A program made the translations under genes and the position numbers. 24,208 bases of DNA from a virus (Duplodnaviria; Heunggongvirae; Uroviricota; Caudoviricetes): the IMG/VR virus record IMGVR_UViG_2579778956_000001, positions 1 to 24,208 of that record; one strand, 5' to 3'. The notes below the pieces were generated by a model that did not search any database, was not told the origin of the DNA, and saw nothing but the letters and a program-made list of their open reading frames with translations. This document shows positions 1 through 23,921 of this stretch, piece after piece (position 1 is the first letter of the stretch; every line of letters begins with the position of its first letter).

Positions 1-1053
1 TTACGGGGTAATGCCAACCGCTGCCGCCACTTTGTCGCCACTTGGCAGCGTTGCCAGAGGATTGAAACGGAGCGCCGTTTCCAGATGATCCGGTGCCAGA
101 TGTGCGTAACGCATAGTCATTTTTATATCGTGGTGTCCGAGAATTTTTTGTAAGGCCAGAATGTTTCCACCCGACATCATGAAGTGCGCCGCAAACGTAT
201 GGCGCAGAACGTGTGTGAGTTGACCGCGAGGGAGCACGATAGACGTTTTTTCCATCACGGATAAAAATTGAAAATAGCAGTCTGTGAAGAAATTGAACCC
301 ATCAAGCGCCATGATCTCTTCGTAAAGCTCTTTACTGATAGGGATGCTTCTGTTTTTCTTCCCCTTCGTTCTTACAAAGGTAATTCGGTATTTGGTCACC
401 TGTGAACGAGTAAGATTTACGGCTTCTCGCCAGCGTGCGCCTGTGCTTAAGCATATCTTAACTACCAGTGCCAGAATTGGGTCCTGACGTTTGCAATCAG
501 CCAGTAATTCAACAATCTGCTCATGGGTAAGCCATGCCATCTCTTTTTCTGCGATGGTGAATTTTCGCATGTTCTCCAGTGGGTTCGGATACGACCATTC
601 GCCCAGGCGGGATAGTTCGCTAAAAACACTACTTAGATAGCTTTGCTCCAGGTTAATGGTGACCGGGCTTGCTCCTTTCTTCCATTTCTCGCTGAAGTAG
701 ATCTCACCTGTCAGGCGTTTATCTCGATAGTGGGCAAACATTTTAGAGGTTAGATCAGTTGCAAGGGGATTGCCCAGAGCGTCAACCATCAGCAGCAATT
801 TGTCATAGACATGCTGCCCAGCTGTCAGTGATTTACCATGTAGTTTGAACCATAGCTCAACCACGTCTTTCAGTGTTCGACGATCCACTGATTCACCTAG
901 CCAGGGCTTTGCTTCGGTTTCTTCCATCGTGTGACGCTCAAAAGCCAGTGCTTCGCCTTTGGTGGCGAATTGTTTACGCACACGACGTCCACTACGTCCG
1001 GCGGGGTAACATTCGCAAAGCCATTTTCCTGTGGTGAGTTTTCGTACTGCCAT
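1..1053 (-). CDS. int: P2/186-family tyrosine integrase (site-specific recombinase)
   Basis: 350-aa ORF with the stop codon at window positions 1-3. Contains LSTGARWREA, FVRTKGKK, HVLRHTFAAHFMMSGG, LQKILGHHD and MRYAHL motifs typical of P2-type integrases (catalytic R..HxxR..Y). Sits at the prophage end next to the repressor, as in P2/186. Confidence 0.9.
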   Translation of the reverse strand: MAVRKLTTGKWLCECYPAGRSGRRVRKQFATKGEALAFERHTMEETEAKPWLGESVDRRTLKDVVELWFKLHGKSLTAGQHVYDKLLLMVDALGNPLATDLTSKMFAHYRDKRLTGEIYFSEKWKKGASPVTINLEQSYLSSVFSELSRLGEWSYPNPLENMRKFTIAEKEMAWLTHEQIVELLADCKRQDPILALVVKICLSTGARWREAVNLTRSQVTKYRITFVRTKGKKNRSIPISKELYEEIMALDGFNFFTDCYFQFLSVMEKTSIVLPRGQLTHVLRHTFAAHFMMSGGNILALQKILGHHDIKMTMRYAHLAPDHLETALRFNPLATLPSGDKVAAAVGITP

Positions 1054-1078
1054 AAAAAAGCCCTCATATCAGAGGGCT
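1054..1078 (-). terminator. Hairpin plus T-run (minus-strand sense) between the DUF4041 gene and the int start codon; possible intrinsic terminator or attenuator
   Basis: Stem AGCCCTC (1059-1065) / GAGGGCT (1072-1078) with a 6-nt loop, preceded on the plus strand by AAAAAA (1054-1059), which is a U-run after the hairpin on the minus-strand transcript. The right arm GAGGG also lies 7 nt upstream of the int ATG and could act as its SD. Confidence 0.4.
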
Positions 1079-1136
1079 AAATTTAACTGTATATACAACC
1101 AGTAATCAATGTGTGATTGCTATGAAACATACATTG

Positions 1137-2813
1137 CTAAGCAACATGTAGTTCATCGTTGGCGGAAGTGGCTGCTTTGCGTTCCTGCTCAATAGCTAGT
1201 GACTCTCTATATTCTTTCGCCTCTGCAAACATTGTCCAGTGGGCATTGATGTTCATATCTTCAATAACCGATTTAATTTCTTTAATATTTACGTTAAAAA
1301 ACTCTTTTCGTGAGTTAATTTTATTGACCTGCTTTTCGTTGAAGACTTTATGCAGATGATTTTCTAATGACGGTGCATCATCACTATAAATCATCGCATG
1401 AACATCGAACGAAAAAGGAACACTAGCATCCCCAAGTTCACGAACACGATCAAGTGGTTCAAGGCGGCGTGTCATTCCAATTTTATATACATCTTCGCCA
1501 AATGAGCCAATATTGCTAATTATATAAACATGGCCTGATCTAGTTTGTTGAGCCATAGAAATAGCTCGTTGGTTTTTAGCTTCAGCTTCTTCATATTTTA
1601 ACTGTAGTTCAGCTATTTTTTGCTCTAAAGCTAAGCGTTGTTCTTCATTTGCAAGCATAAGCTCTTTCGTTGCTTTATTTATAGCTTGCTGAATAGCTTT
1701 TTCTTCTTTTTCGGCTTCTTTTATCGCTTTTTCATACTCTCTACGAGCTCTTTCCTCTTCACGAAGCTGTTCTTTAATCCTTCTTTGCTCCTCTTTTTCT
1801 TCGAGCATAATTTCATTAACTGCAACTCCCCATTTTAGCTCGTTGAGTCGTGCCTGAAGATAGATGTCACTTATTTTTGCGGATCTAAAAGCAGAGCCAT
1901 TATAATTTACAAGTTGAAATGCATCTTTTATTTCTTGGGAAAGTTTTCCAAAATTGTTGTGTTTGACTTTTGATAAAATACTGTCAACTCTTCCATTGAA
2001 GGCATCCAAAACAAAGTTGATAGCAGTATTACGCCTGTTTTGCTCAACATAATCACACGAAGCTGCTTTATTAGTTTTTATTAATGATTTTGTTAACTCC
2101 CTGGCTTTTTGTAATTCCTTGCCTGCATCTGTAAACTCATAATTTTCTGCCAATTCATCAAGTACACTACGGTTAGGGATGATCCATTCATCGCCATAAC
2201 CTTCAATTTTATTTTTCATTGATTTGGCAACTGCTTCATATTTTTCTGCAAACTCTTTAGCTTCATATGCTGAACCAGCAATCTCTTTTGCTCTTTCTTC
2301 TGCATCGGAAATAATTTTTACTGCGTTGTCATTAGCATTTGAGATCAGCTCATTTGCTTTACTGTTGGCATTATCAAGACGTTCTTTGGCTTTCAGGCGT
2401 GCATCGCGAGCGTCTTTGGTGATTGCTATAGCTTCGCTATTAGCGTTGCTTATTGTTATCTGAGCTTGATAACTTGCTTCGTTTACTGTCTTAGCTGCCT
2501 TTATTTGGGCTTCTTCTATTTTTTGCCTAGCTATTGAGTCTGCATTTTTTATCTTATTCTCTGCCTCCATCACTGCGCTGTGCAATTCTTCGTATTGCCA
2601 TAATGGTGCTGCTCGCCCTTCAAGCTCTGATAGATCTCGTGCAGTCTGTGCTAACTTTTCTTGATTTTCACTCAGTTGGCTGGAAAGGGCTATGTTGTTA
2701 GCCGTCAGATTATCTATGGCGGCTTTGTGTTCTTTACTTTGCTTAAATAATATTATAGCTAGAACAGGGGCGAGAAATGCTAATAAGAATATAACGATGG
2801 AAAATGAATTCAT
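1137..2813 (-). CDS. Membrane-anchored coiled-coil protein with DUF4041 and C-terminal T5orf172 (GIY-YIG-like, MUG113) domains; candidate defence/abortive-infection moron
   Basis: 558-aa ORF. N-terminal hydrophobic helix (FSIVIFLLAFLAPVLAIILF), long E/K/A-rich coiled-coil region, and C-terminal GHVYIISN...YKIGMTRRLEPLDRVRELG...PFSFDV...LHKVF...REFF, which matches the T5orf172 pattern from memory. AT-rich relative to the phage backbone. Starts 20 nt after the cI stop with AAGGA as SD. Confidence 0.8.
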   Translation of the reverse strand: MNSFSIVIFLLAFLAPVLAIILFKQSKEHKAAIDNLTANNIALSSQLSENQEKLAQTARDLSELEGRAAPLWQYEELHSAVMEAENKIKNADSIARQKIEEAQIKAAKTVNEASYQAQITISNANSEAIAITKDARDARLKAKERLDNANSKANELISNANDNAVKIISDAEERAKEIAGSAYEAKEFAEKYEAVAKSMKNKIEGYGDEWIIPNRSVLDELAENYEFTDAGKELQKARELTKSLIKTNKAASCDYVEQNRRNTAINFVLDAFNGRVDSILSKVKHNNFGKLSQEIKDAFQLVNYNGSAFRSAKISDIYLQARLNELKWGVAVNEIMLEEKEEQRRIKEQLREEERARREYEKAIKEAEKEEKAIQQAINKATKELMLANEEQRLALEQKIAELQLKYEEAEAKNQRAISMAQQTRSGHVYIISNIGSFGEDVYKIGMTRRLEPLDRVRELGDASVPFSFDVHAMIYSDDAPSLENHLHKVFNEKQVNKINSRKEFFNVNIKEIKSVIEDMNINAHWTMFAEAKEYRESLAIEQERKAATSANDELHVA

Positions 2814-2833
2814 TTTTAAATCCTTTTACTATA

Positions 2834-3430
2834 TCAATTTGAAACTATTGTACTTCTTATACAAGCAACCACTTCAATATCAGAAAATGCACATTCAAAG
2901 CTATTCTCTGTAGTTGTAATTTTAATCATACCTTTTGGAAGCTTTGTGATTTTTCGAATGGAATAGGTTCCGTCGATGTTGATTAACCAGTGTCCATCAA
3001 GTACTTCAGAAAATTTTTGATCACAAATGTATGTGACAAGCCCATCCTGAATAACAATTGGTGATGAAAGATTTGCAGGAAGAAATGATGAATCGAATAC
3101 ATATGAACCATCTTCAATCATTTTGCCTGCGGTAAGGCGAAACTTGGGAAGCTCTTCTGTGGCTACTGTCAGCGAGCTTTGCTTAAGTCCTTGCCCGGTG
3201 GTTAACCATTTCAGTGAGGTTCCTGTTTCAAGAGCACATTGGATTATCCAGTCTGCAGGAAACGTATCCCGCAAATACCTGTTCGCCAGAGTGCTTTTTG
3301 ATACTTCCAAGTGATCAGCTAAAGCCTGTCGTGTCGTAAAGCCATAAGCTTCGACTAATCGCTCAATCGCAGCCTTACCACCTTTATTGGGATTTATTTT
3401 GATCTCACTTGGGTACTTTGATGTTGACAT
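2834..3430 (-). CDS. cI: 186-type CI immunity repressor (N-terminal HTH, C-terminal oligomerisation domain)
   Basis: 198-aa ORF. N-terminal LVEAYGFTTRQALADHLEVSKSTLANRYLRD...ALETGTSLKWLTTGQG resembles the phage-186 CI HTH domain. Divergent from the apl/cII genes and adjacent to int. No LexA/S24-type Ala-Gly cleavage site or G-D-S-M motif seen. Confidence 0.75.
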   Translation of the reverse strand: MSTSKYPSEIKINPNKGGKAAIERLVEAYGFTTRQALADHLEVSKSTLANRYLRDTFPADWIIQCALETGTSLKWLTTGQGLKQSSLTVATEELPKFRLTAGKMIEDGSYVFDSSFLPANLSSPIVIQDGLVTYICDQKFSEVLDGHWLINIDGTYSIRKITKLPKGMIKITTTENSFECAFSDIEVVACIRSTIVSN

Positions 3431-3525
3431 ATCTCTTTTGCGATCCTAGTATCAGTTTTGTCCCCATTTGGGTACTTGTCACGATTACTACAGGCTCACC
3501 ACAAGCCAATAGGAGATGTTGCATC
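3431..3525. promoter_or_regulatory. Lysis-lysogeny switch region between divergently oriented cI and apl (expected face-to-face pL/pR promoters and CI/Apl operators)
   Basis: 95-bp intergenic region between the cI start (3430, minus) and the apl start (3526, plus). Contains TTGTCA/TTGTCC-like hexamers and a good SD (AGGAG 3511-3515) for apl. Exact -35/-10 elements and operators not resolved by eye. Confidence 0.4.
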
Positions 3526-8595: not shown

Positions 8596-8687
8596 TTACG
8601 CGGGTTAACAATTCGTGCTCTTAATAATACCAGGCATATCAGGGTGATGAGCGTAAAAAAACGTTTTACATCAGTAAGATTATTATA

Positions 8688-8707
8688 TACTGTAAATATA
8701 AACAGTG
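8688..8707. promoter_or_regulatory. LexA (SOS) box overlapping a putative promoter upstream of the small ORF at 8748
   Basis: taCTGTaaatataaACAGtg (CTGT 8690-8693, 8-nt AT-rich spacer, ACAG 8702-8705) matches the consensus CTGT-N8-ACAG. Embedded in an AT-rich region with a TTTACA -35-like hexamer upstream, and about 45 bp before an ORF with a strong SD (AGGAGG 8738-8743). Confidence 0.6.
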
Positions 8708-8747
8708 GTTATGTATACAGTATTGCTTTGGTGTCATAGGAGGAAAG

Positions 8748-8936
8748 ATGCAGGACTATTTTTTGGAGTCTTTGAAGCTCCAGCGCATTGATTTTTTTCT
8801 TAAGCTTGTAGCGGCTAGTGAGTGTAGTGATGAAGAGAAGGGGCTGGCTCTGCAGTGGGTTTCAGAGCTGACTGATGAGTTGATGGCGAAAATTCGTGCC
8901 CATGAATATAACCGTGTAATGGATCTTCCCGGTTAG
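8748..8936 (+). CDS. Small hypothetical protein under putative LexA control (possible antirepressor-like or SOS-induced factor)
   Basis: 62-aa ORF with strong SD AGGAGG and an upstream LexA box. Position corresponds to the 186 tum / P2 tin-old region downstream of gene A. No confident homology recognised. Confidence 0.5.
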   Translation: MQDYFLESLKLQRIDFFLKLVAASECSDEEKGLALQWVSELTDELMAKIRAHEYNRVMDLPG

Positions 8937-8949
8937 CAGCAGGGGCGTT

Positions 8950-8980
8950 GCTGGCGTGAGAACTAGATTCTCGCGTCAGC
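8950..8980 (+). other. Long imperfect palindrome / RNA hairpin downstream of the small ORF
   Basis: GCTGGCGTGAGAA (8950-8962), 5-nt loop, TTCTCGCGTCAGC (8968-8980): a 13-bp stem with two G-U wobbles in RNA. No U-tract follows, so not a canonical terminator. Confidence 0.35.
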
Positions 8981-9106
8981 AAGGTCAACTAAGGATTGAA
9001 ACAGAAAGCCCTTGAAAACAGTAGCAAGTTGCCTATTATCTACGCTGTATTTAATCGATGTCATTGGCTGTAATACCTTAAGTGATATTGAAAGGCGGTG
9101 TGGGGA

Positions 9107-10267
9107 ATGGATCTGGCTAAAGTTGAAGAACGCGTCCGAAGAGTCATAGGGACAATGGAGTCTGCCGAGCTTGATGAATATTTTTGGGGTAAGCGCTCGG
9201 GTTTGGGAGACTCATTACCTCCGTATTATCTCGTTTATTTTCTTTTGGTAGATTTACTGAAATTTAAAAATCGTGGGGTTGATGAGAAGATTTCTTTTTC
9301 TATCCCAGTCCGGATTGATGGGACTGTCGTAATTATAGAACATCGTAAACTTGGTTTAGATATATTTATCAAGAGTGATGATGATATAGAGCAAGCTAAA
9401 ACTGTTTTGAGACATATTTGCGCAGGGGTTAAAGCTGCTACGAAATTTTTTGACTCGCTTGCAGACAATGCAGCAAAGACTTCAAATCTAAATGTTAATA
9501 ACAATGCTAATTCTCTTTATGATAGGTTTTGCTATTTTTTAGAGCTATATAAACAGAAGCTTGATGAAGTTGCTGCTGGCCAAGAGTCTAAACTGGAAGT
9601 TGATAGTGAGTTTAAGTCTGATAATTTTTTCAGCCTGTTACAATCCACTTTTGAACAATCAAATAAGATAATTGAACTCCGAAGAGAGGCTATGTGGTTA
9701 GCAACGTCTGCAATTGAGTCATTTTTCAATTGGACCGAGCATGTTTTCATTCTTATTGCAATCTTGAAGGGTGAGATAAAAAATGGGAATGATGTGGCTG
9801 ATAAAGTTGGGAAAGAATGGGGGGAGAAATTCAAATTAGCCATTGATATTAACTCTTCCAGTCTAAAATCATTCTATGATCGTTTACTTATACTCAGAAA
9901 ACAGGTGCGTAATTTTGTAGCCCATGGCGCCTTCGGTAAGGATGGGCAAGCATTGGAATTTCACTCAAGTGTAGGGGCTGTGCCACTATTGCTGCCTCAT
10001 CGAGAAAATAAAGAACGTTTCAAGTTTGGAAATGGTGTGCATTTTTTGGCACCTGAAGCAATGCAATTAATTAACGATTTTCTTGAAAATTTGTGGCAGG
10101 GAGAACTGTCCCCAGCAAAAATTTATATTGAATCTGGATGTCCTTTAATACTATCTTACGTAACTAATGGAACCTATGCGGAGGCGATGAAATCAGAAAG
10201 GAATATGGACTTATTGGTTAATTACTTAACTCGTGAGATGGATAATGCCGCAAACATGGATTGGTAA
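9107..10267 (+). CDS. Hypothetical protein with HEPN-like R-N-x3-H motif (candidate RNase-type defence/abortive-infection effector)
   Basis: ORF with ATG at 9107 (alternative GTG at 9098; SD-like AAGG at 9092-9095, about 11 nt upstream). AT-rich codon usage. Contains LRKQVRNFVAHG, which fits the HEPN consensus R-[NSH]-x3-H. No other domain recognised. Lies in the gpA-Q hotspot. Confidence 0.65.
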   Translation: MDLAKVEERVRRVIGTMESAELDEYFWGKRSGLGDSLPPYYLVYFLLVDLLKFKNRGVDEKISFSIPVRIDGTVVIIEHRKLGLDIFIKSDDDIEQAKTVLRHICAGVKAATKFFDSLADNAAKTSNLNVNNNANSLYDRFCYFLELYKQKLDEVAAGQESKLEVDSEFKSDNFFSLLQSTFEQSNKIIELRREAMWLATSAIESFFNWTEHVFILIAILKGEIKNGNDVADKVGKEWGEKFKLAIDINSSSLKSFYDRLLILRKQVRNFVAHGAFGKDGQALEFHSSVGAVPLLLPHRENKERFKFGNGVHFLAPEAMQLINDFLENLWQGELSPAKIYIESGCPLILSYVTNGTYAEAMKSERNMDLLVNYLTREMDNAANMDW

Positions 10268-10594
10268 ACTCTAGGTGCGGGTTACAAACACACAAAAAAT
10301 CTTCCTGAGTTAGGTGTTATCCCAACCCAAGGCTGTGTCAGGAAAACTTCATATGGCGCATGAGATCGCATGATAGTATGACGATCGTTTTCGCTGATGC
10401 CAGCCTGAGCTGGCGGGCTGTTGCATATGTCATGCAGGCGCATGAAAACCACTGCATAAAGCGGGTAGGCGTGGCGGGGATACGAGCGCGCGCTTGTGGC
10501 TTTGAATACTCAAATCATGTAATGTTAATTGTCCAAGCTCAGATGTTATTTTAGAATCGTAGTTCACTAGAACTGTGTTAATTGGGAAGTATTC

Positions 10595-11845
10595 ATGGAT
10601 AAACAACGTGCTTCACAAGTTTTTGTGCCTGGCGGTATGCCGAAATTGACTTATGTTGAGCGCTCTGAAGGAGAGGTTCATGGAAAACTGGAGAGTGCTA
10701 AAGATAATTTATGTAAGTTAGTGACTTTAACTGGGCAAACAAAGTCTGGTAAGACTGTAATTACAAGAATGGTATTCCCAGTCATGGACGATGATGTTGT
10801 ATGGATTGACGGTGGGAGTATTACAACTGAAGATGATATTTGGGAGCAGGTATTAGAAAAACTAAATGGCTACCATAGTATTGAAGTTAATTCTGGAGAA
10901 AATAGTGCTATTGCAGTTAGTGGTAAGGTATCGGGGACCGCAAGTGCATTCGTTGTTAAAGGTACAGGTGAGGCTGGTTTAGTTCAGACGGATGGAAAGT
11001 CAAATGGTAATAAAAAATCGCGAACGATATCCGCAAAAAGTTCTGCACTAAAAGTTCTCTCTCAAACCAAGTCTAGTCTTATAATTGATGACTTTCATTA
11101 CCTTGATCGTGACCTACAAGGTAACTTTATTAGAGCGATAAAACCATTAGTTTTTGATGGAGTACCAGTTGTACTGATAGCCATTCCACATCGAAGATAT
11201 GATGCTGTAAAAGTTGAAAAAGAAATTACCGGACGGCTAGAAAATATTTCCATGCCTTCGTGGGAAATGGATGAACTAAAACAAATAGCAAAAGTGGGAT
11301 TTCCTCTGTTAAACATGGAAGTTAGTGATTCAGTAATTGATAAAATTGCCAATGAATCATTGGGAAGCCCTCATTTAATGCAAGAGTTTTGCAAGGCTAT
11401 ATGCTTAGCAAATAATGTTAAAGAAACTTTGCCGAGTAAGTTAGTTATTAATTCTTTAGATGATGATATTTTTAGAAAGGTTGCAGAATCCACTGGGAAA
11501 ATAGTATTTGATAAGTTAGCTAGTGGCCCTAATCAGCGAACTGACAGAATTCCTAGAAAACTGAAAAGTGGTGAGGAAGTAGATATATATAAAGTTGTAT
11601 TATATGCATTGTCACATATGAAACCAGGAATGCAAAGTATTCAGTATGAGGAGTTAAGATCAGCCATACGCGAACTGGTGCAAGATGCTCCTCCACAAGC
11701 TCATGAGGTTACTCGTGTTATAGAAAAAATGGCTAAAATAGCTGCTACGGAAGAAGCTTCAACTCCTGTAATAGATTGGGATAAGGAGGACCGAAAGTTG
11801 CATATTACTGATCCATTTTTTGCTTTTTATCTAAAATGGCGATAA
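10595..11845 (+). CDS. P-loop NTPase (Walker A/B ATPase), candidate defence-system ATPase
   Basis: 416-aa ORF with SD GGGAAG upstream. Walker A LTGQTKSGKT (about residue 45) and Walker B-like hhhhDD (SLIIDDFHYLD). AT-rich. No nuclease (Toprim/HNH) motif recognised, so not an obvious Old/Gabija-type protein. Confidence 0.8.
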   Translation: MDKQRASQVFVPGGMPKLTYVERSEGEVHGKLESAKDNLCKLVTLTGQTKSGKTVITRMVFPVMDDDVVWIDGGSITTEDDIWEQVLEKLNGYHSIEVNSGENSAIAVSGKVSGTASAFVVKGTGEAGLVQTDGKSNGNKKSRTISAKSSALKVLSQTKSSLIIDDFHYLDRDLQGNFIRAIKPLVFDGVPVVLIAIPHRRYDAVKVEKEITGRLENISMPSWEMDELKQIAKVGFPLLNMEVSDSVIDKIANESLGSPHLMQEFCKAICLANNVKETLPSKLVINSLDDDIFRKVAESTGKIVFDKLASGPNQRTDRIPRKLKSGEEVDIYKVVLYALSHMKPGMQSIQYEELRSAIRELVQDAPPQAHEVTRVIEKMAKIAATEEASTPVIDWDKEDRKLHITDPFFAFYLKWR

Positions 11846-11852
11846 AGGTTCT

Positions 11853-11871
11853 GGCTGCCAAACTGGCAGCC
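11853..11871. terminator. GC-rich hairpin between the convergent ATPase gene (+) and portal gene (-); putative bidirectional terminator
   Basis: GGCTGCC (11853-11859), loop AAACT, GGCAGCC (11865-11871). Located in the 32-bp gap between two convergent stop codons. Flanking T/A runs are weak. Confidence 0.45.
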
Positions 11872-14820: not shown

Positions 14821-15459
14821 ATGACAGTGAAAGCAAAGCGTTTTCGCATCGGGGTGGAAGGTGCCACCACCGACGGACGCGAAATCCAGCGTGAATGGCT
14901 GGAACAGATGGCAGCCAGCTACAACCCGGCGGTGTATACCGCGCTGATTAACCTTGAGCACATCAAGTCTTATCTGCCGGACAGCACCTTTAACCGCTAC
15001 GGCAAGGTGACGGCGCTGTTTGCTGAAGAAATCAAGGAAGGTCCGCTGGCAGGCAAGATGGCGCTGTATGCCGACGTTGAGCCAACGGAGTCCCTGGTGG
15101 AACTGGTGAAAAAAGGCCAGAAATTATTCACATCTATGGAAGTTAGCCCGAAGTTCGCTGATACGGGCAAAGCCTACCTGGTCGGCCTGGCTGCCACTGA
15201 TGACCCTGCCAGTCTGGGCACTGAAATGCTGACATTCAGCGCCAGTGCAGCCCATAACCCGCTGGCAAACCGCAAGCAGAATCCCGCCAATCTTTTTACC
15301 GCTGCAGAGGAAACGGTGATCGAACTGGAAGAAATCCAGGATGACAAACCGTCCCTGTTTGCCCGTGTCACGGCGCTGTTCACCAAAAAAGAGCAGTCCG
15401 ATGACGCCCGGTTCTCTGATGTGCATAAGGCCGTGGAACAACTGGCAGGGGATCGTTGA
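14821..15459 (+). CDS. O: Capsid scaffolding protein gpO, C-terminally truncated at a deletion junction (likely nonfunctional)
   Basis: 212-aa ORF with an N-terminus of gpO type (FRIGVEGATTDGREI...YLVGLAATDDPASLGTE). P2 gpO is about 284 aa as I recall. The ORF ends in a short non-homologous tail (QLAGDR*) exactly where tail-tube homology begins in another frame. Confidence 0.75.
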   Translation: MTVKAKRFRIGVEGATTDGREIQREWLEQMAASYNPAVYTALINLEHIKSYLPDSTFNRYGKVTALFAEEIKEGPLAGKMALYADVEPTESLVELVKKGQKLFTSMEVSPKFADTGKAYLVGLAATDDPASLGTEMLTFSASAAHNPLANRKQNPANLFTAAEETVIELEEIQDDKPSLFARVTALFTKKEQSDDARFSDVHKAVEQLAGDR

Positions 15460-21588: not shown

Positions 21589-23274
21589 TTATCCTAATCC
21601 TGGCCATACCATGACGATGATTGTCCCTGCCAGCGTCAGCAGGACGTTGGCGATTGCATAGGTGCCCGCATAGCCCAGCGCCGGGATGTTACTGCGAGCT
21701 GTATCACTGATGATCTCCATTGCCGGCGCGCAGGTACGTGCGCCCATCATTGCGCCGAACAACAGTGCGCGGTTCATTCGCAATACATAAGCACCGAACA
21801 AGAAACAGATAACCACGGGCACCAGACTGACAATCAATCCGGCAATCAACATCTGACCGCCAATCGCGCCCAGGCCGTTATTAATACCGCTACCGGCGCT
21901 CAGACCAACGCCTGCCATAAACACCATCAAGCCGAACTCTTTCACCATGCTTAATGCACCTTGCGGAATGTAACCGAAGGTCGGGTGGTTAGCACGCATA
22001 AAGCCCAGCATAATTCCGGCGAATAACAACCCGGCAGCGTTCCCCATGCCGAAACTGAATGTGCTGAACTGGAAGGTGATCATCCCGATCATCAGCCCAA
22101 TAACAAAGAAGGCGCAAAATGCCAGCAGGTCAGTGACCTGGCTGTGAATCGAGATAAAGCCGATGCGATCGGCGATGGTTTTTACGCGACGGGCATCACC
22201 GCTGACTTGTAAAACGTCACCTTTGTTAAGCACGACGTTGTCATCTATCGGCATCTCAATCTGGCTACGAATGACGCGGTTAAGGAAGCAACCGTGATCG
22301 GTCAACTTCAGTTGTGCGAGACGTTTACCTACAGCGTTATGGTTTTTAACGACCACTTCTTCAGTGACGATACGCATGTCGAGAAGGTCACGATCGAAAA
22401 CTTCTTTACCGTTACGGAAGCTGGGATCGAGTCGGGCATGGGCGTCGGGATAGCCTACCAACGCTATTTCATCGCCCATTTGTAGCACGGCATCACCGTC
22501 TGGATTTGCCAGAATCCCGTTACGTCGAATACGTTCAATGTAGCAGCCGGTTTGTCGATAAATACCCAGTTCACGCAGATTTTTGCCGTCGGTCCAGGCC
22601 ACCAGCTCCGGGCCGACGCGATAGGCGCGGATCACCGGTAAATAAACCTTACGGTTGGCATCAGTGTCCAGGCCACGTTCGCGGGCGATTTGCTGGGCGC
22701 TGGTCTGTAAGTCCTGATGCTGCAATTTCGGCAAGTAACGCGCACCAACAATCAAACTCACCAGACCGATTAAATAGGTTAAGGCATACCCGAGGCTCAG
22801 ATTATCCAGTGCCAGTGAGAGCTGCCTGCTTTCCATGCCGGAATGACGCAGTGTATCGCCAGCACCGACCAGAACCGGTGTCGACGTCATAGAGCCTGCT
22901 AACATACCGGCCGTCAGGCCAATATCCCAGCCAAACAGCTTACCTAACCCTAAGGCGATCACCAGCGCACTGCCAACCATCACCAGTGCTAACATTAGGT
23001 AATTTTTCCCATCGCGAAAAAAAATGGAAAAAAAGTTCGGTCCGGCTTCGACCCCGACGCAGAAAATAAACAGCATAAAGCCAAGATTAAGCGCATCGGT
23101 GTTAATGCTGAAATGTTGTTGGCCTAATAACAGCGATACGACTAAAACGCCAATGGAATTACCCAGTTGGATCGAACCAAGTCGTAACTTTCCGAGACAT
23201 AGCCCAAGCGCGAGGACCACAAATAATAACAGAATGTAATTCCCATTTAACAATTCGGCGACGTTTATATTCAC
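21589..23274 (-). CDS. ybjL: Putative AAE-family transport protein YbjL (host chromosomal gene)
   Basis: 561-aa polytopic membrane protein with central TrkA-C-like soluble domains. N-terminus [38 protein letters not shown] matches E. coli YbjL as I recall. Confidence 0.9.
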
Positions 23275-23543
23275 GGAGGCTAACTTCTTGTTTACTAGTA
23301 AGCTGTTGAAAGAAATGGTAATTTACGATAATGTTTTTTACCAGAATTCAGGGCGCAGATTCATTCAGCGCACCTAAACGATAGTAAAGTAACAATATAT
23401 TTTACTAGTGTAATCACATTAGGTATCAACGGCTATATGAATTGCGTTGGCCTATATTAGCATGGAATGCGAAGCGGCTTTATCTTACTGAACGCCACAC
23501 TGGCGAAAAATGTGTTCGATAGACGCAGTGTCAGGAGGAACGA

Positions 23544-23921
23544 GTGAAACATAAACAACGTTGGGCGGGGGCAATCTGCTGTTTTGTCCTCTTCATTGTG
23601 GTGTGCCTTTTTCTGGCGACGCACATGAAAGGCGCTTTTCGGGCTGCCGGGCATCCTGAAATCGGCTTGCTATTTTTCATTCTTCCTGGAGCAGTGGCCA
23701 GCTTCTTTTCACAGCGTAGAGAAGTCCTGAAACCTCTGTTTGGCGCAATGCTGGCGGCACCCTGTTCGATGCTCATTATGCGGCTGTTTTTTTCACCGAC
23801 GCGCTCATTCTGGCAAGAGCTGGCATGGTTACTAAGCGCGGTGTTCTGGTGTGCGCTGGGGGCACTGTGTTTCTTATTTATCAGTAGTTTGTTTAAACCA
23901 CAGCACAGAAAAAATCAGTAA
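23544..23921 (+). CDS. ybjM: Inner membrane protein YbjM (host gene)
   Basis: 125-aa hydrophobic protein; GTG start behind SD AGGAGG (23533-23538). Conserved neighbour of ybjL and grxA. Confidence 0.85.
   Translation: MKHKQRWAGAICCFVLFIVVCLFLATHMKGAFRAAGHPEIGLLFFILPGAVASFFSQRREVLKPLFGAMLAAPCSMLIMRLFFSPTRSFWQELAWLLSAVFWCALGALCFLFISSLFKPQHRKNQ

Follow-up and report, generated by a model that had tools for sequence, protein, structure and literature searches.

A SNIPE (PD-lambda-1) family gene between the CI repressor and integrase genes of a 186/P2-like prophage

[quoted passage not shown] In phage 186 the cI and int genes overlap by one base, in agreement with the original prediction that int adjoins the repressor gene there. 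The inserted gene (1137-2813, minus strand) starts with ATG and is intact according to both the ORF prediction and its PADLOC match, and its GC content of 37.5% (0.375) is below that of int (0.483), of gpA (0.526) and of the window as a whole (0.49). It is preceded by the gene for a 186-type CI repressor of 198 amino acids (2834-3430, minus strand; Pfam Phage_CI_repr 8.4e-32, Phage_CI_C 2.5e-27) and followed by that for a tyrosine integrase of 350 amino acids (1-1053, minus strand; Pfam Int_N 3.2e-32, Phage_integrase 7.2e-22). The cI stop codon (2834-2836) and the ATG (2811-2813) are separated by a spacer of 20 nucleotides on the same strand (2814-2833), which contains the Shine-Dalgarno sequence AAAGGA at 2821-2826, seven nucleotides before the ATG. 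The description of an AT-rich gene that follows cI by 20 nucleotides and has its own Shine-Dalgarno sequence is therefore correct. Judged by its sequence, the gene is an intact member of the SNIPE (PD-lambda-1) family, which already has a name, and its product is very probably a SNIPE defence protein that acts as a membrane-tethered nuclease on injected DNA.

PD-lambda-1 was discovered functionally by Vassallo et al. 2022 (PMC9519451) and renamed SNIPE by Saxton et al. (Nature 2026; PMC13190303), who describe the tested protein as a GIY-YIG nuclease located in the inner membrane, where it cuts the DNA of siphoviruses while this is being injected. The reference protein is that of Escherichia coli ECOR26 (RCP76574.1, 500 amino acids), which was recovered from phage PhiR26_1 and is annotated there as PD-lambda-1. 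The 558-amino-acid protein matches two PADLOC PD-Lambda-1 models, PDLC03976 with E = 7.3e-120 (residues 107-550 against profile positions 37-481 of 491) and PDLC03977 with E = 3.7e-116 over nearly its full length, as well as PHROG 1847 (3.8e-132). Klebsiella phage KP12 encodes a protein that is 100% identical to it, recent RefSeq records name the same gene "SNIPE associated domain-containing protein", and the Pfam label of DUF4041 (PF13250) in the precomputed annotation is PF13250:SNIPE. The profile searches that had been proposed as a check, Pfam and PADLOC alike, support the DUF4041/T5orf172 assignment, whereas the statement that the architecture does not correspond to a named defence system is contradicted by the PADLOC match, the RefSeq name and the published mechanism (PMC9519451; PMC13190303).

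The protein begins with a transmembrane helix, residues 4-23 (FSIVIFLLAFLAPVLAIILF), followed by KQSK (2745-2804, minus strand). This is the sole segment in which the Kyte-Doolittle mean over 19 residues exceeds 1.6, with a peak of 2.99, and the transmembrane helix of reference SNIPE lies in the same N-terminal place. By analogy with PhoA/LacZ data on the reference (PMC13190303), the topology would be N-out/C-in. A single transmembrane helix is found in 59% of SNIPE homologues, and membrane targeting is accordingly typical of the family but not universal. Residues 24-260 (2034-2744, minus strand) constitute a helical, coiled-coil-like region in which AlphaFold2 places helices at 2-67 and 71-203, with pLDDT values of 60-86 up to about residue 170; BLASTP against reference SNIPE finds no similarity upstream of residue 265. 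DUF4041 covers residues 267-322 (1848-2015, minus strand; Pfam E = 3.1e-12, 46.6 bits against a curated cut-off of 27) and is connected by a long, charged helical linker, residues 323-425 (1539-1847, minus strand; AlphaFold2 helices 317-387 and 390-425), to a GIY-YIG-type nuclease domain at residues 427-520 (1254-1535, minus strand). The latter is matched by Pfam T5orf172 over residues 427-520 (E = 5.9e-17, 62.5 bits against a cut-off of 20) and by MUG113 over residues 443-520 (E = 1.6e-19, 70.7 bits against 22.3). In the pairwise alignment E484 (codon 1362-1364, minus strand) corresponds to the catalytic E414 of reference SNIPE, and Y430, G446, R449, R450, E459, E484 and N497 are invariant among 70 diverse family members. 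In the reference the E414A mutation abolishes defence and DUF4041 is necessary for it (PMC13190303). The AlphaFold2 model, built on an input alignment of 20 sequences that are 81-97% identical to the query, has a mean pLDDT of 54.3 and a pTM of 0.22, and the values for DUF4041 and the nuclease domain stay under 50. Its long helices span residues 2-67, 71-203 and 317-425, and moderate confidence is limited to the first ~170 residues and to residues 350-410. The model is thus too poor to serve as a fold-level check of the nuclease domain, and a profile search of PDB sequences for solved relatives returned none at E <= 1. The original reading of the protein as a membrane anchor followed by extended helices, DUF4041 and T5orf172 nevertheless stands, as the Pfam matches exceed their cut-offs, the hydropathy peak is clear and the helices are predicted by AlphaFold2.

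The proposed mechanism is that of the reference. DUF4041 would bind DNA as well as the tape measure protein of a siphovirus that is injecting its genome, and the C-terminal GIY-YIG-type nuclease with its catalytic E484 would cut the phage genome while it crosses the membrane, so that infection fails and the cell survives. The distinction between self and non-self would depend on where the DNA is, not on its sequence or modification, with the membrane tether holding the nuclease away from the chromosome. BLASTP against RCP76574.1 yields 49% identity over the C-terminal 293 amino acids (E = 1e-76), and on the strength of this homology the protein is expected to be an active nuclease that provides direct, non-abortive defence.

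The same enzyme might instead act as an abortive-infection effector, a nuclease set free or switched on by infection that then attacks the host chromosome and degrades it, which kills the cell and blocks the spread of the phage. When its transmembrane helix is removed, reference SNIPE is toxic, binding to the nucleoid and causing double-strand breaks (PMC13190303), which means that damage to host DNA is possible for the enzyme, and the different N-terminal region of the present subfamily could entail a different regulation. However, infected cells that carry the reference stay alive and continue to grow when the multiplicity of infection is high, in contrast to those with an abortive control (PMC13190303). 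Since membrane anchor, DUF4041 and nuclease are all kept and no sensor or protease domain has been added, abortive action is unlikely here. The T5orf172/MUG113 domains are part of the GIY-YIG clan, which includes phage homing endonucleases, and the gene is AT-rich relative to the prophage backbone; both features would also suit a selfish element of the homing-endonuclease type, one that invaded the cI-int junction by itself and plays no part in host defence. Such an element would not be expected to carry a membrane anchor and a helical/DUF4041 region of ~400 amino acids, in a protein where Pfam detects no homing-endonuclease DNA-binding module, nor to give an end-to-end match to the profile of a defence gene that was isolated by functional selection. 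The slot moreover holds 15 other, unrelated cargoes, several of which are known defence genes, and the unit of exchange is cI together with its cargo rather than the nuclease gene alone (see below). Homing-endonuclease identity is rejected on the grounds of architecture and exchanged unit, and the probability left to a selfish element is very small.

An equally slight chance is given to a structural or cell-cycle protein in place of a nuclease. This reading takes its cue from GenBank, where the gene of Klebsiella phage KP12 and that of vB_EcoM-813R9 are annotated as "chromosome segregation ATPase", and from weak matches to DivIVA_Wag31, SMC_prok_A and JetC/LmuB. All of them remain far under their curated cut-offs, the first two with 24.5 bits against 260 and 15.5 bits against 729.4, respectively, and the weak matches fall in the helical regions, as coiled-coil composition predicts; the sub-threshold NCBIfam matches to DivIVA, SMC and V-ATPase subunit E are accordingly rejected as compositional. 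Pfam finds no ATPase or P-loop domain, and the "chromosome segregation ATPase" annotation is rejected on account of this absence. A membrane-tethered nuclease directed against incoming phage DNA is the preferred reading.

It is reasonable to regard the 558-codon ORF as an anti-phage gene that is expressed in the lysogen. A promoter cannot fit within the 20-nucleotide spacer, and the scan for promoter- or terminator-like sites between cI and SNIPE found none. The cI gene is presumed to lie upstream of SNIPE in the same transcription unit, and given the 20-nucleotide gap, the shared strand and the lysogenic operon of 186, a pL-type promoter would drive constitutive expression of SNIPE in lysogens on the same transcript as cI. 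In the annotation of phage 186 pL transcribes the lysogenic operon, with a predicted operon terminator beyond int and orf69. A strict promoter scan of the window located pR at 3424-3452 (plus strand) but not pL. A relaxed pattern offers TTGAAA-17-TATAAC at 3604-3576 (minus strand) as a candidate; with 61 matches against 68.7 expected the relaxed search is not enriched over chance, and this assignment of pL is therefore only a guess.

On the other side of the SNIPE gene lies the conserved int leader (1054-1136, minus strand), which forms the int-side border of the slot and was delimited by sequence scans and by comparison across cargo types. It contains a promoter-like site (TTGATT at 1104-1109, a 17-nucleotide spacer and TTAAAT at 1081-1086, minus strand) and a hairpin formed by AGCCCTC (1072-1078) and GAGGGCT (1059-1065) with a T-run at 1054-1059 that directly abuts the int ATG. 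This hairpin and T-run (1078-1059, minus strand) had been taken for a terminator of the inserted gene; the structure does follow the gene, but the leader block of ~80 nucleotides is kept before int behind all 16 cargo types seen in this slot and also in three other genera, and by its sequence conservation the hairpin is part of the int leader and not the SNIPE gene's own terminator. In one copy of the leader the two arms of the stem read AGTCCTC and GAGGACT, a change that is compensatory. The GAGGG of the 3' arm is the only Shine-Dalgarno-like sequence available to int. It is conceivable that RNA reading through from upstream forms the hairpin, which would either terminate transcription or hide the int ribosome-binding site, and that RNA from the promoter-like site just upstream starts inside the 5' arm and so would escape the hairpin. 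In this manner the leader may make the expression of int independent of the cI-cargo transcript.

The arrangement is not confined to this prophage. Homologues recur at the same position, another point that was to be checked: the layout of cI, 20 nucleotides, SNIPE, 82-83 nucleotides and int is repeated in prophages of Klebsiella, Salmonella and Enterobacter with integrases of 339, 344 and 350 amino acids, and the SNIPE copies in these genera have the AAAGGA spacer with the same spacing. Their only neighbours, as in E. coli, are cI and int, which characterises SNIPE as a single-gene system without a dedicated partner gene. Phage 4LV2017 is homologous to the window over 1-1136 and then again from 3423, with no alignment in between, and this break delimits an exchangeable module of cI and SNIPE cargo at 1137-3422 (minus strand). 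Among 80 prophages with an integrase at least 99% identical, the cI-int slot holds 16 cargo types, including Old, PDC-S20, PDC-M18 and PDC-M11, and across these 80 loci 16 cI alleles are paired with the 16 cargo types almost one-to-one. Six of the 16 slot types encode no protein with a significant PADLOC or Pfam match: a 63-amino-acid, secreted-looking protein that is present in about half of the 80 prophages, two gene pairs of the 349+201 kind, a pair of related proteins of 324-325 amino acids, a 355-amino-acid protein and a 488-amino-acid protein. Tentatively, and with rather less than even confidence, it is proposed that the cI-int interval of enterobacterial 186-like prophages is a defence hotspot of high turnover in which the cargo is inherited together with the immunity repressor, with a leader that may insulate int, with six unmatched cargo types as candidate defence systems and with a long-N-terminus SNIPE that may have another partner.

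Taken alone, the gene contributes little that is new beyond a further prophage-borne example of a characterised system; about 3% of complete E. coli genomes contain SNIPE, which PADLOC, Pfam and RefSeq already name. Saxton et al. propose that DUF4041 and the N-terminal region set the phage specificity (PMC13190303), and a natural variant with a conserved nuclease, a diverged DUF4041 and an unrelated N-terminus could be used to test this proposal. More is to be gained from the setting than from the gene, as a compact slot with a defined border on each side provides a place to look for candidate defence genes, and while the gene is known, its genomic setting may not have been fully described. 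If the hotspot reading is true, the six slot types without PADLOC or Pfam matches become candidates for new defence systems.

The protein shares its domain order with ECOR26 SNIPE: in both, the N-terminal transmembrane helix precedes a helical region and DUF4041, and a long helix then leads to the GIY-YIG/T5orf172 nuclease. Both are also single-gene systems on temperate phages. The domains are offset by exactly +70 residues, with DUF4041 at 197-252 in the reference and 267-322 here, and T5orf172 at 357-448 and 427-520, respectively. The nuclease domain is 73% identical and retains the catalytic glutamate (E414 in the reference, E484 here), the helical linker (residues 323-425) is 47% identical, and DUF4041 only 28%. 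The protein is longer (558 against 500 amino acids), and its N-terminal ~260 amino acids are unrelated and about 70 longer than the corresponding region of the reference. Two positions at which mutation altered tape-measure binding in the reference (PMC13190303) differ as well, E223 corresponding to S292 here and W257 to K327. The association of reference SNIPE with ManYZ is proposed to proceed via the N-terminal region, which is highly variable among homologues (PMC13190303); the ManYZ part of the model is not transferable to the present protein, because its first 260 residues give no alignment with the reference. Considering the unrelated N-terminus and the low identity of DUF4041, both the partner in the host, which for the reference is ManYZ, and the range of phages attacked probably differ, and the long-N-terminus proteins could represent a subfamily that uses a partner other than ManYZ and hence targets other phages. 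The genetic contexts are also distinct: the ECOR26 gene has ren and rha as its neighbours within a lambdoid nin region, lies on the strand opposite to theirs, and was cloned and assayed with its native promoter, whereas the present copy follows cI by 20 nucleotides in a P2/186-like prophage.

Comparable slots have been reported in related phages. Rousset et al. 2022 describe a cI-integrase defence hotspot in Vibrio K139-like, P2-related phages (PMC9122126), and "integrase to primase" appears as a minor hotspot of P2-like prophages in a survey from 2026 (PMC13586616); according to their hotspot passages the cargo is likewise variable and includes known defence systems. The former hotspot belongs to the Vibrionaceae, the latter to enterobacteria at a coarse integrase-to-primase resolution only, and these same passages make no mention of a link between cargo and cI allele or of a conserved int leader (PMC9122126; PMC13586616). 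The argument from an unusual location in the original prediction is weaker than claimed, in view of these similar slots and of the many cargoes for which the cI-int interval is a hotspot in the present prophage lineage. In phage lambda the exclusion genes rexA and rexB are co-transcribed with the repressor gene as cI-rexA-rexB. SNIPE likewise lies directly downstream of the repressor gene and on the same strand, and it would share with rexAB and with P2 old, tin and fun the expression logic of a prophage anti-phage gene that is made in the lysogen, while the proteins and mechanisms are unrelated. The P2 loci differ from the cI-int slot, with old and tin between gpA and gpQ and fun among the tail genes (PMC9519451), yet a homologue of Old sits in the same slot of sister prophages.

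The SNIPE (PD-lambda-1) gene of this prophage is a 558 aa ORF (1137-2813, minus strand) situated between the genes for a 186-type CI repressor (198 aa, 2834-3430, minus strand) and the tyrosine integrase Int (350 aa, 1-1053, minus strand), both ORF calls with Pfam matches. Its ATG lies 20 nt from the cI stop codon, with AAAGGA seven nt upstream, and its GC content of 37.5% is below that of the window overall (49%), int (48%) and gpA (53%). A one-base overlap joins cI and int in phage 186, and the original prediction was right to regard them as neighbours there. The protein matches the Pfam families DUF4041 (residues 267-322), T5orf172 (residues 427-520) and MUG113 (residues 443-520), all above the curated cut-offs. 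Residues 4-23 form its sole strongly hydrophobic stretch (Kyte-Doolittle mean 2.99), which is followed by KQSK, and the AlphaFold2 model has long predicted helices at residues 2-67, 71-203 and 317-425. The ORF and domain description in the original prediction was thus accurate, since the ORF, the Pfam domains including DUF4041 and T5orf172, the hydropathy and the hairpin were all recovered. It had not recognised the architecture as a named defence system, but two PADLOC PD-Lambda-1 models match the protein over nearly the whole profile (E = 7.3e-120 and 3.7e-116), a recent RefSeq name for the gene is "SNIPE associated domain-containing protein" and the precomputed Pfam label of PF13250 is now SNIPE; PHROG 1847 also matches (3.8e-132). 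Its guess of an anti-phage function is sound. The protein is a member of the SNIPE family with a complete architecture and its catalytic residues present, and the system is already named, found by standard tools and mechanistically characterised.

PD-lambda-1 was obtained by Vassallo et al. 2022 (PMC9519451) through functional selection and renamed SNIPE by Saxton et al. (Nature 2026, PMC13190303). The reference protein (E. coli ECOR26 RCP76574.1) resides in the inner membrane with its N-terminus out and its bulk in the cytoplasm; removal of the transmembrane helix renders it toxic, and it then binds the nucleoid and causes double-strand breaks. Its defence is lost in the E414A mutant and upon deletion of DUF4041 (PMC13190303). 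When a variant with defence-enhancing mutations was cross-linked from a site within DUF4041, the tape measure protein of phage Bas14 was captured; DUF4041 of the reference also promotes DNA binding (PMC13190303). The reference blocks siphoviruses, not the tested myoviruses and podoviruses (PMC13190303). By homology, the protein described here would be expressed from the cI transcript in lysogens and tethered to the inner membrane, where its GIY-YIG-type domain would cut siphovirus DNA as it enters at the injection site, with DUF4041 probably supplying contacts to DNA and the tape measure. We infer its activity, localisation, direct mode of defence and co-transcription with cI in this way. The reference cleaves lambda DNA during injection and its defence is direct and non-abortive (PMC13190303); a role in abortive infection is very unlikely.

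Two other readings concern what the gene encodes. That it is a selfish homing endonuclease is highly improbable, and that its product is a structural or ATPase protein is equally hard to credit. The name "chromosome segregation ATPase" appears in phage records (OM835953.1, ON470620.1) for an identical or 97% identical protein and was rejected as no ATPase domain was found; it is an annotation error that arose from coiled-coil similarity. Klebsiella phage KP12 (OM835953.1, KP12_343) encodes an identical protein and Escherichia phage vB_EcoM-813R9 one of 97% identity, and homologues of 82-85% identity occur in Klebsiella, Salmonella, Citrobacter, Enterobacter and other genera. Of 5,426 complete E. 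coli genomes, 165 carry the gene over at least 80% of its length, and all but one of these copies have a nucleotide identity of at least 95%. The copies examined share one layout (cI of 198 aa, 20 nt, SNIPE, 82 nt, int) with an int of 339, 344 or 350 aa, and recurrence at the int-cI position was found among them in Klebsiella, Salmonella and Enterobacter.

The cI-int location is a cargo hotspot with published precedents. Rousset et al. 2022 (PMC9122126) describe a hotspot between cI and the integrase in Vibrio K139-like P2-related phages, and a 2026 survey (PMC13586616) describes a minor P2 hotspot from integrase to primase holding 8% of systems. In 80 IMG/VR loci chosen for an integrase with 99% or more identity to that of the window, the interval is 408 to 2,633 nt long and forms 16 sequence clusters, all with a GC content of 30-37% and with every gene on the cI/int strand. 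PADLOC identifies SNIPE (12 loci), a full-length Old homologue (E = 9e-235), PDC-S20 KAP-type NTPases, PDC-M18A/B, PDC-M11A/B and a 662 aa AriA/AAA_15-like ATPase as cargoes. Six of the 16 types have no protein with a significant PADLOC or Pfam match, the commonest (41 of the 80 loci) encoding a single 63 aa protein with a signal-like N-terminus and a Cys-rich tail (L003:6621-6812). The other unmatched cargoes are two 349+201-like gene pairs (L053:5255-6911; L065:5205-6910) and proteins of 324 and 325 aa (L041:5945-6919; L081:3503-4480), 355 aa (L077:4094-5161) and 488 aa (L034:5445-6911), and their position in the slot makes them candidate defence or lysogenic-conversion genes. Alleles of cI clustered at 90% identity pair nearly one-to-one with the cargo types (16 with 16), which suggests that cI and cargo are exchanged as one unit. 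Homology to phage 4LV2017 extends over positions 1-1136 of the window and picks up again at 3423, so the replaced unit corresponds exactly to SNIPE and the whole cI gene (1137-3422).

The int-side border of the slot is the int leader (1054-1136, minus strand), a block of about 80 nt upstream of int that stays conserved whichever of the 16 cargoes precedes it and is also conserved in three other genera. It contains a promoter-like element (TTGATT at 1109-1104, a 17-nt spacer and TTAAAT at 1086-1081, minus strand; TTGAC(A/C)-17-T(T/A)AAAT across copies) and a hairpin (1078-1059, minus strand) with a T-run that directly adjoins the int ATG. The hairpin occurs in two versions, with a compensatory stem change in one copy, and GAGGG in its 3' arm is the only Shine-Dalgarno-like sequence available to int. 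The original prediction took it for the terminator of the SNIPE gene, but its conservation behind all cargoes makes it part of the int leader and not of the SNIPE cassette. Judging from sequence, read-through RNA from cI and cargo may fold the hairpin and be terminated or have the int ribosome-binding site hidden, and RNA from the local promoter-like site may start within the 5' arm and escape it. What remains of interest is the cI-linked slot with its unannotated cargoes, together with this leader.

Compared with 4LV2017 the prophage is defective, lacking about 10.96 kb from within gpO (scaffold) to within gpFII (tail tube), with 3 nt shared at the junction (15435-15437). The deletion takes out the genes for capsid, lysis, baseplate, fibre and sheath; the other cargo region is intact, as are cI and SNIPE. 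The canonical P2 hotspot from gpA to gpQ (8600-11870) also carries low-GC cargo (39% GC), comprising a 416 aa protein (10595-11845) that matches the PADLOC candidate PDC-S59 (E = 1.2e-31) and weakly AAA_22, and a 389 aa protein (9098-10267) without PADLOC or Pfam match. Host genes for a YbjL-like transporter (Asp-Al_Ex and TrkA_C) and YbjM occupy 21589-23921, which places the prophage end near 21.5 kb, and the int-side att site lies outside the window as this begins at the int stop codon.

The SNIPE family is large, with 3,355 cluster representatives matching at E <= 1e-3, of which 1,405 reach E <= 1e-30. Many of the representatives align to the 558 aa protein from about residue 5 to 545, and the long N-terminal form is thus a common subfamily and no oddity. 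In an alignment of 70 members, 31-52% identical to it, the invariant columns include Y430, G446, R449, R450, E459, E484 and N497, all of which it retains. The 500 aa reference was retrieved from the record of phage PhiR26_1, which annotates it as PD-lambda-1; its gene, in a lambdoid nin region, runs on the strand opposite to its neighbours. BLASTP aligns the C-terminal 293 residues of the two proteins with 49% identity (E = 1e-76) and detects no similarity ahead of residue 265, the N-terminal ~260 residues being unalignable. The nuclease domains are 73% identical, the helices preceding them 47% and the DUF4041 domains 28%; the Pfam domains lie exactly 70 residues further along in the 558 aa protein, and the catalytic E414 of the reference corresponds to its E484. 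[quoted passage not shown]
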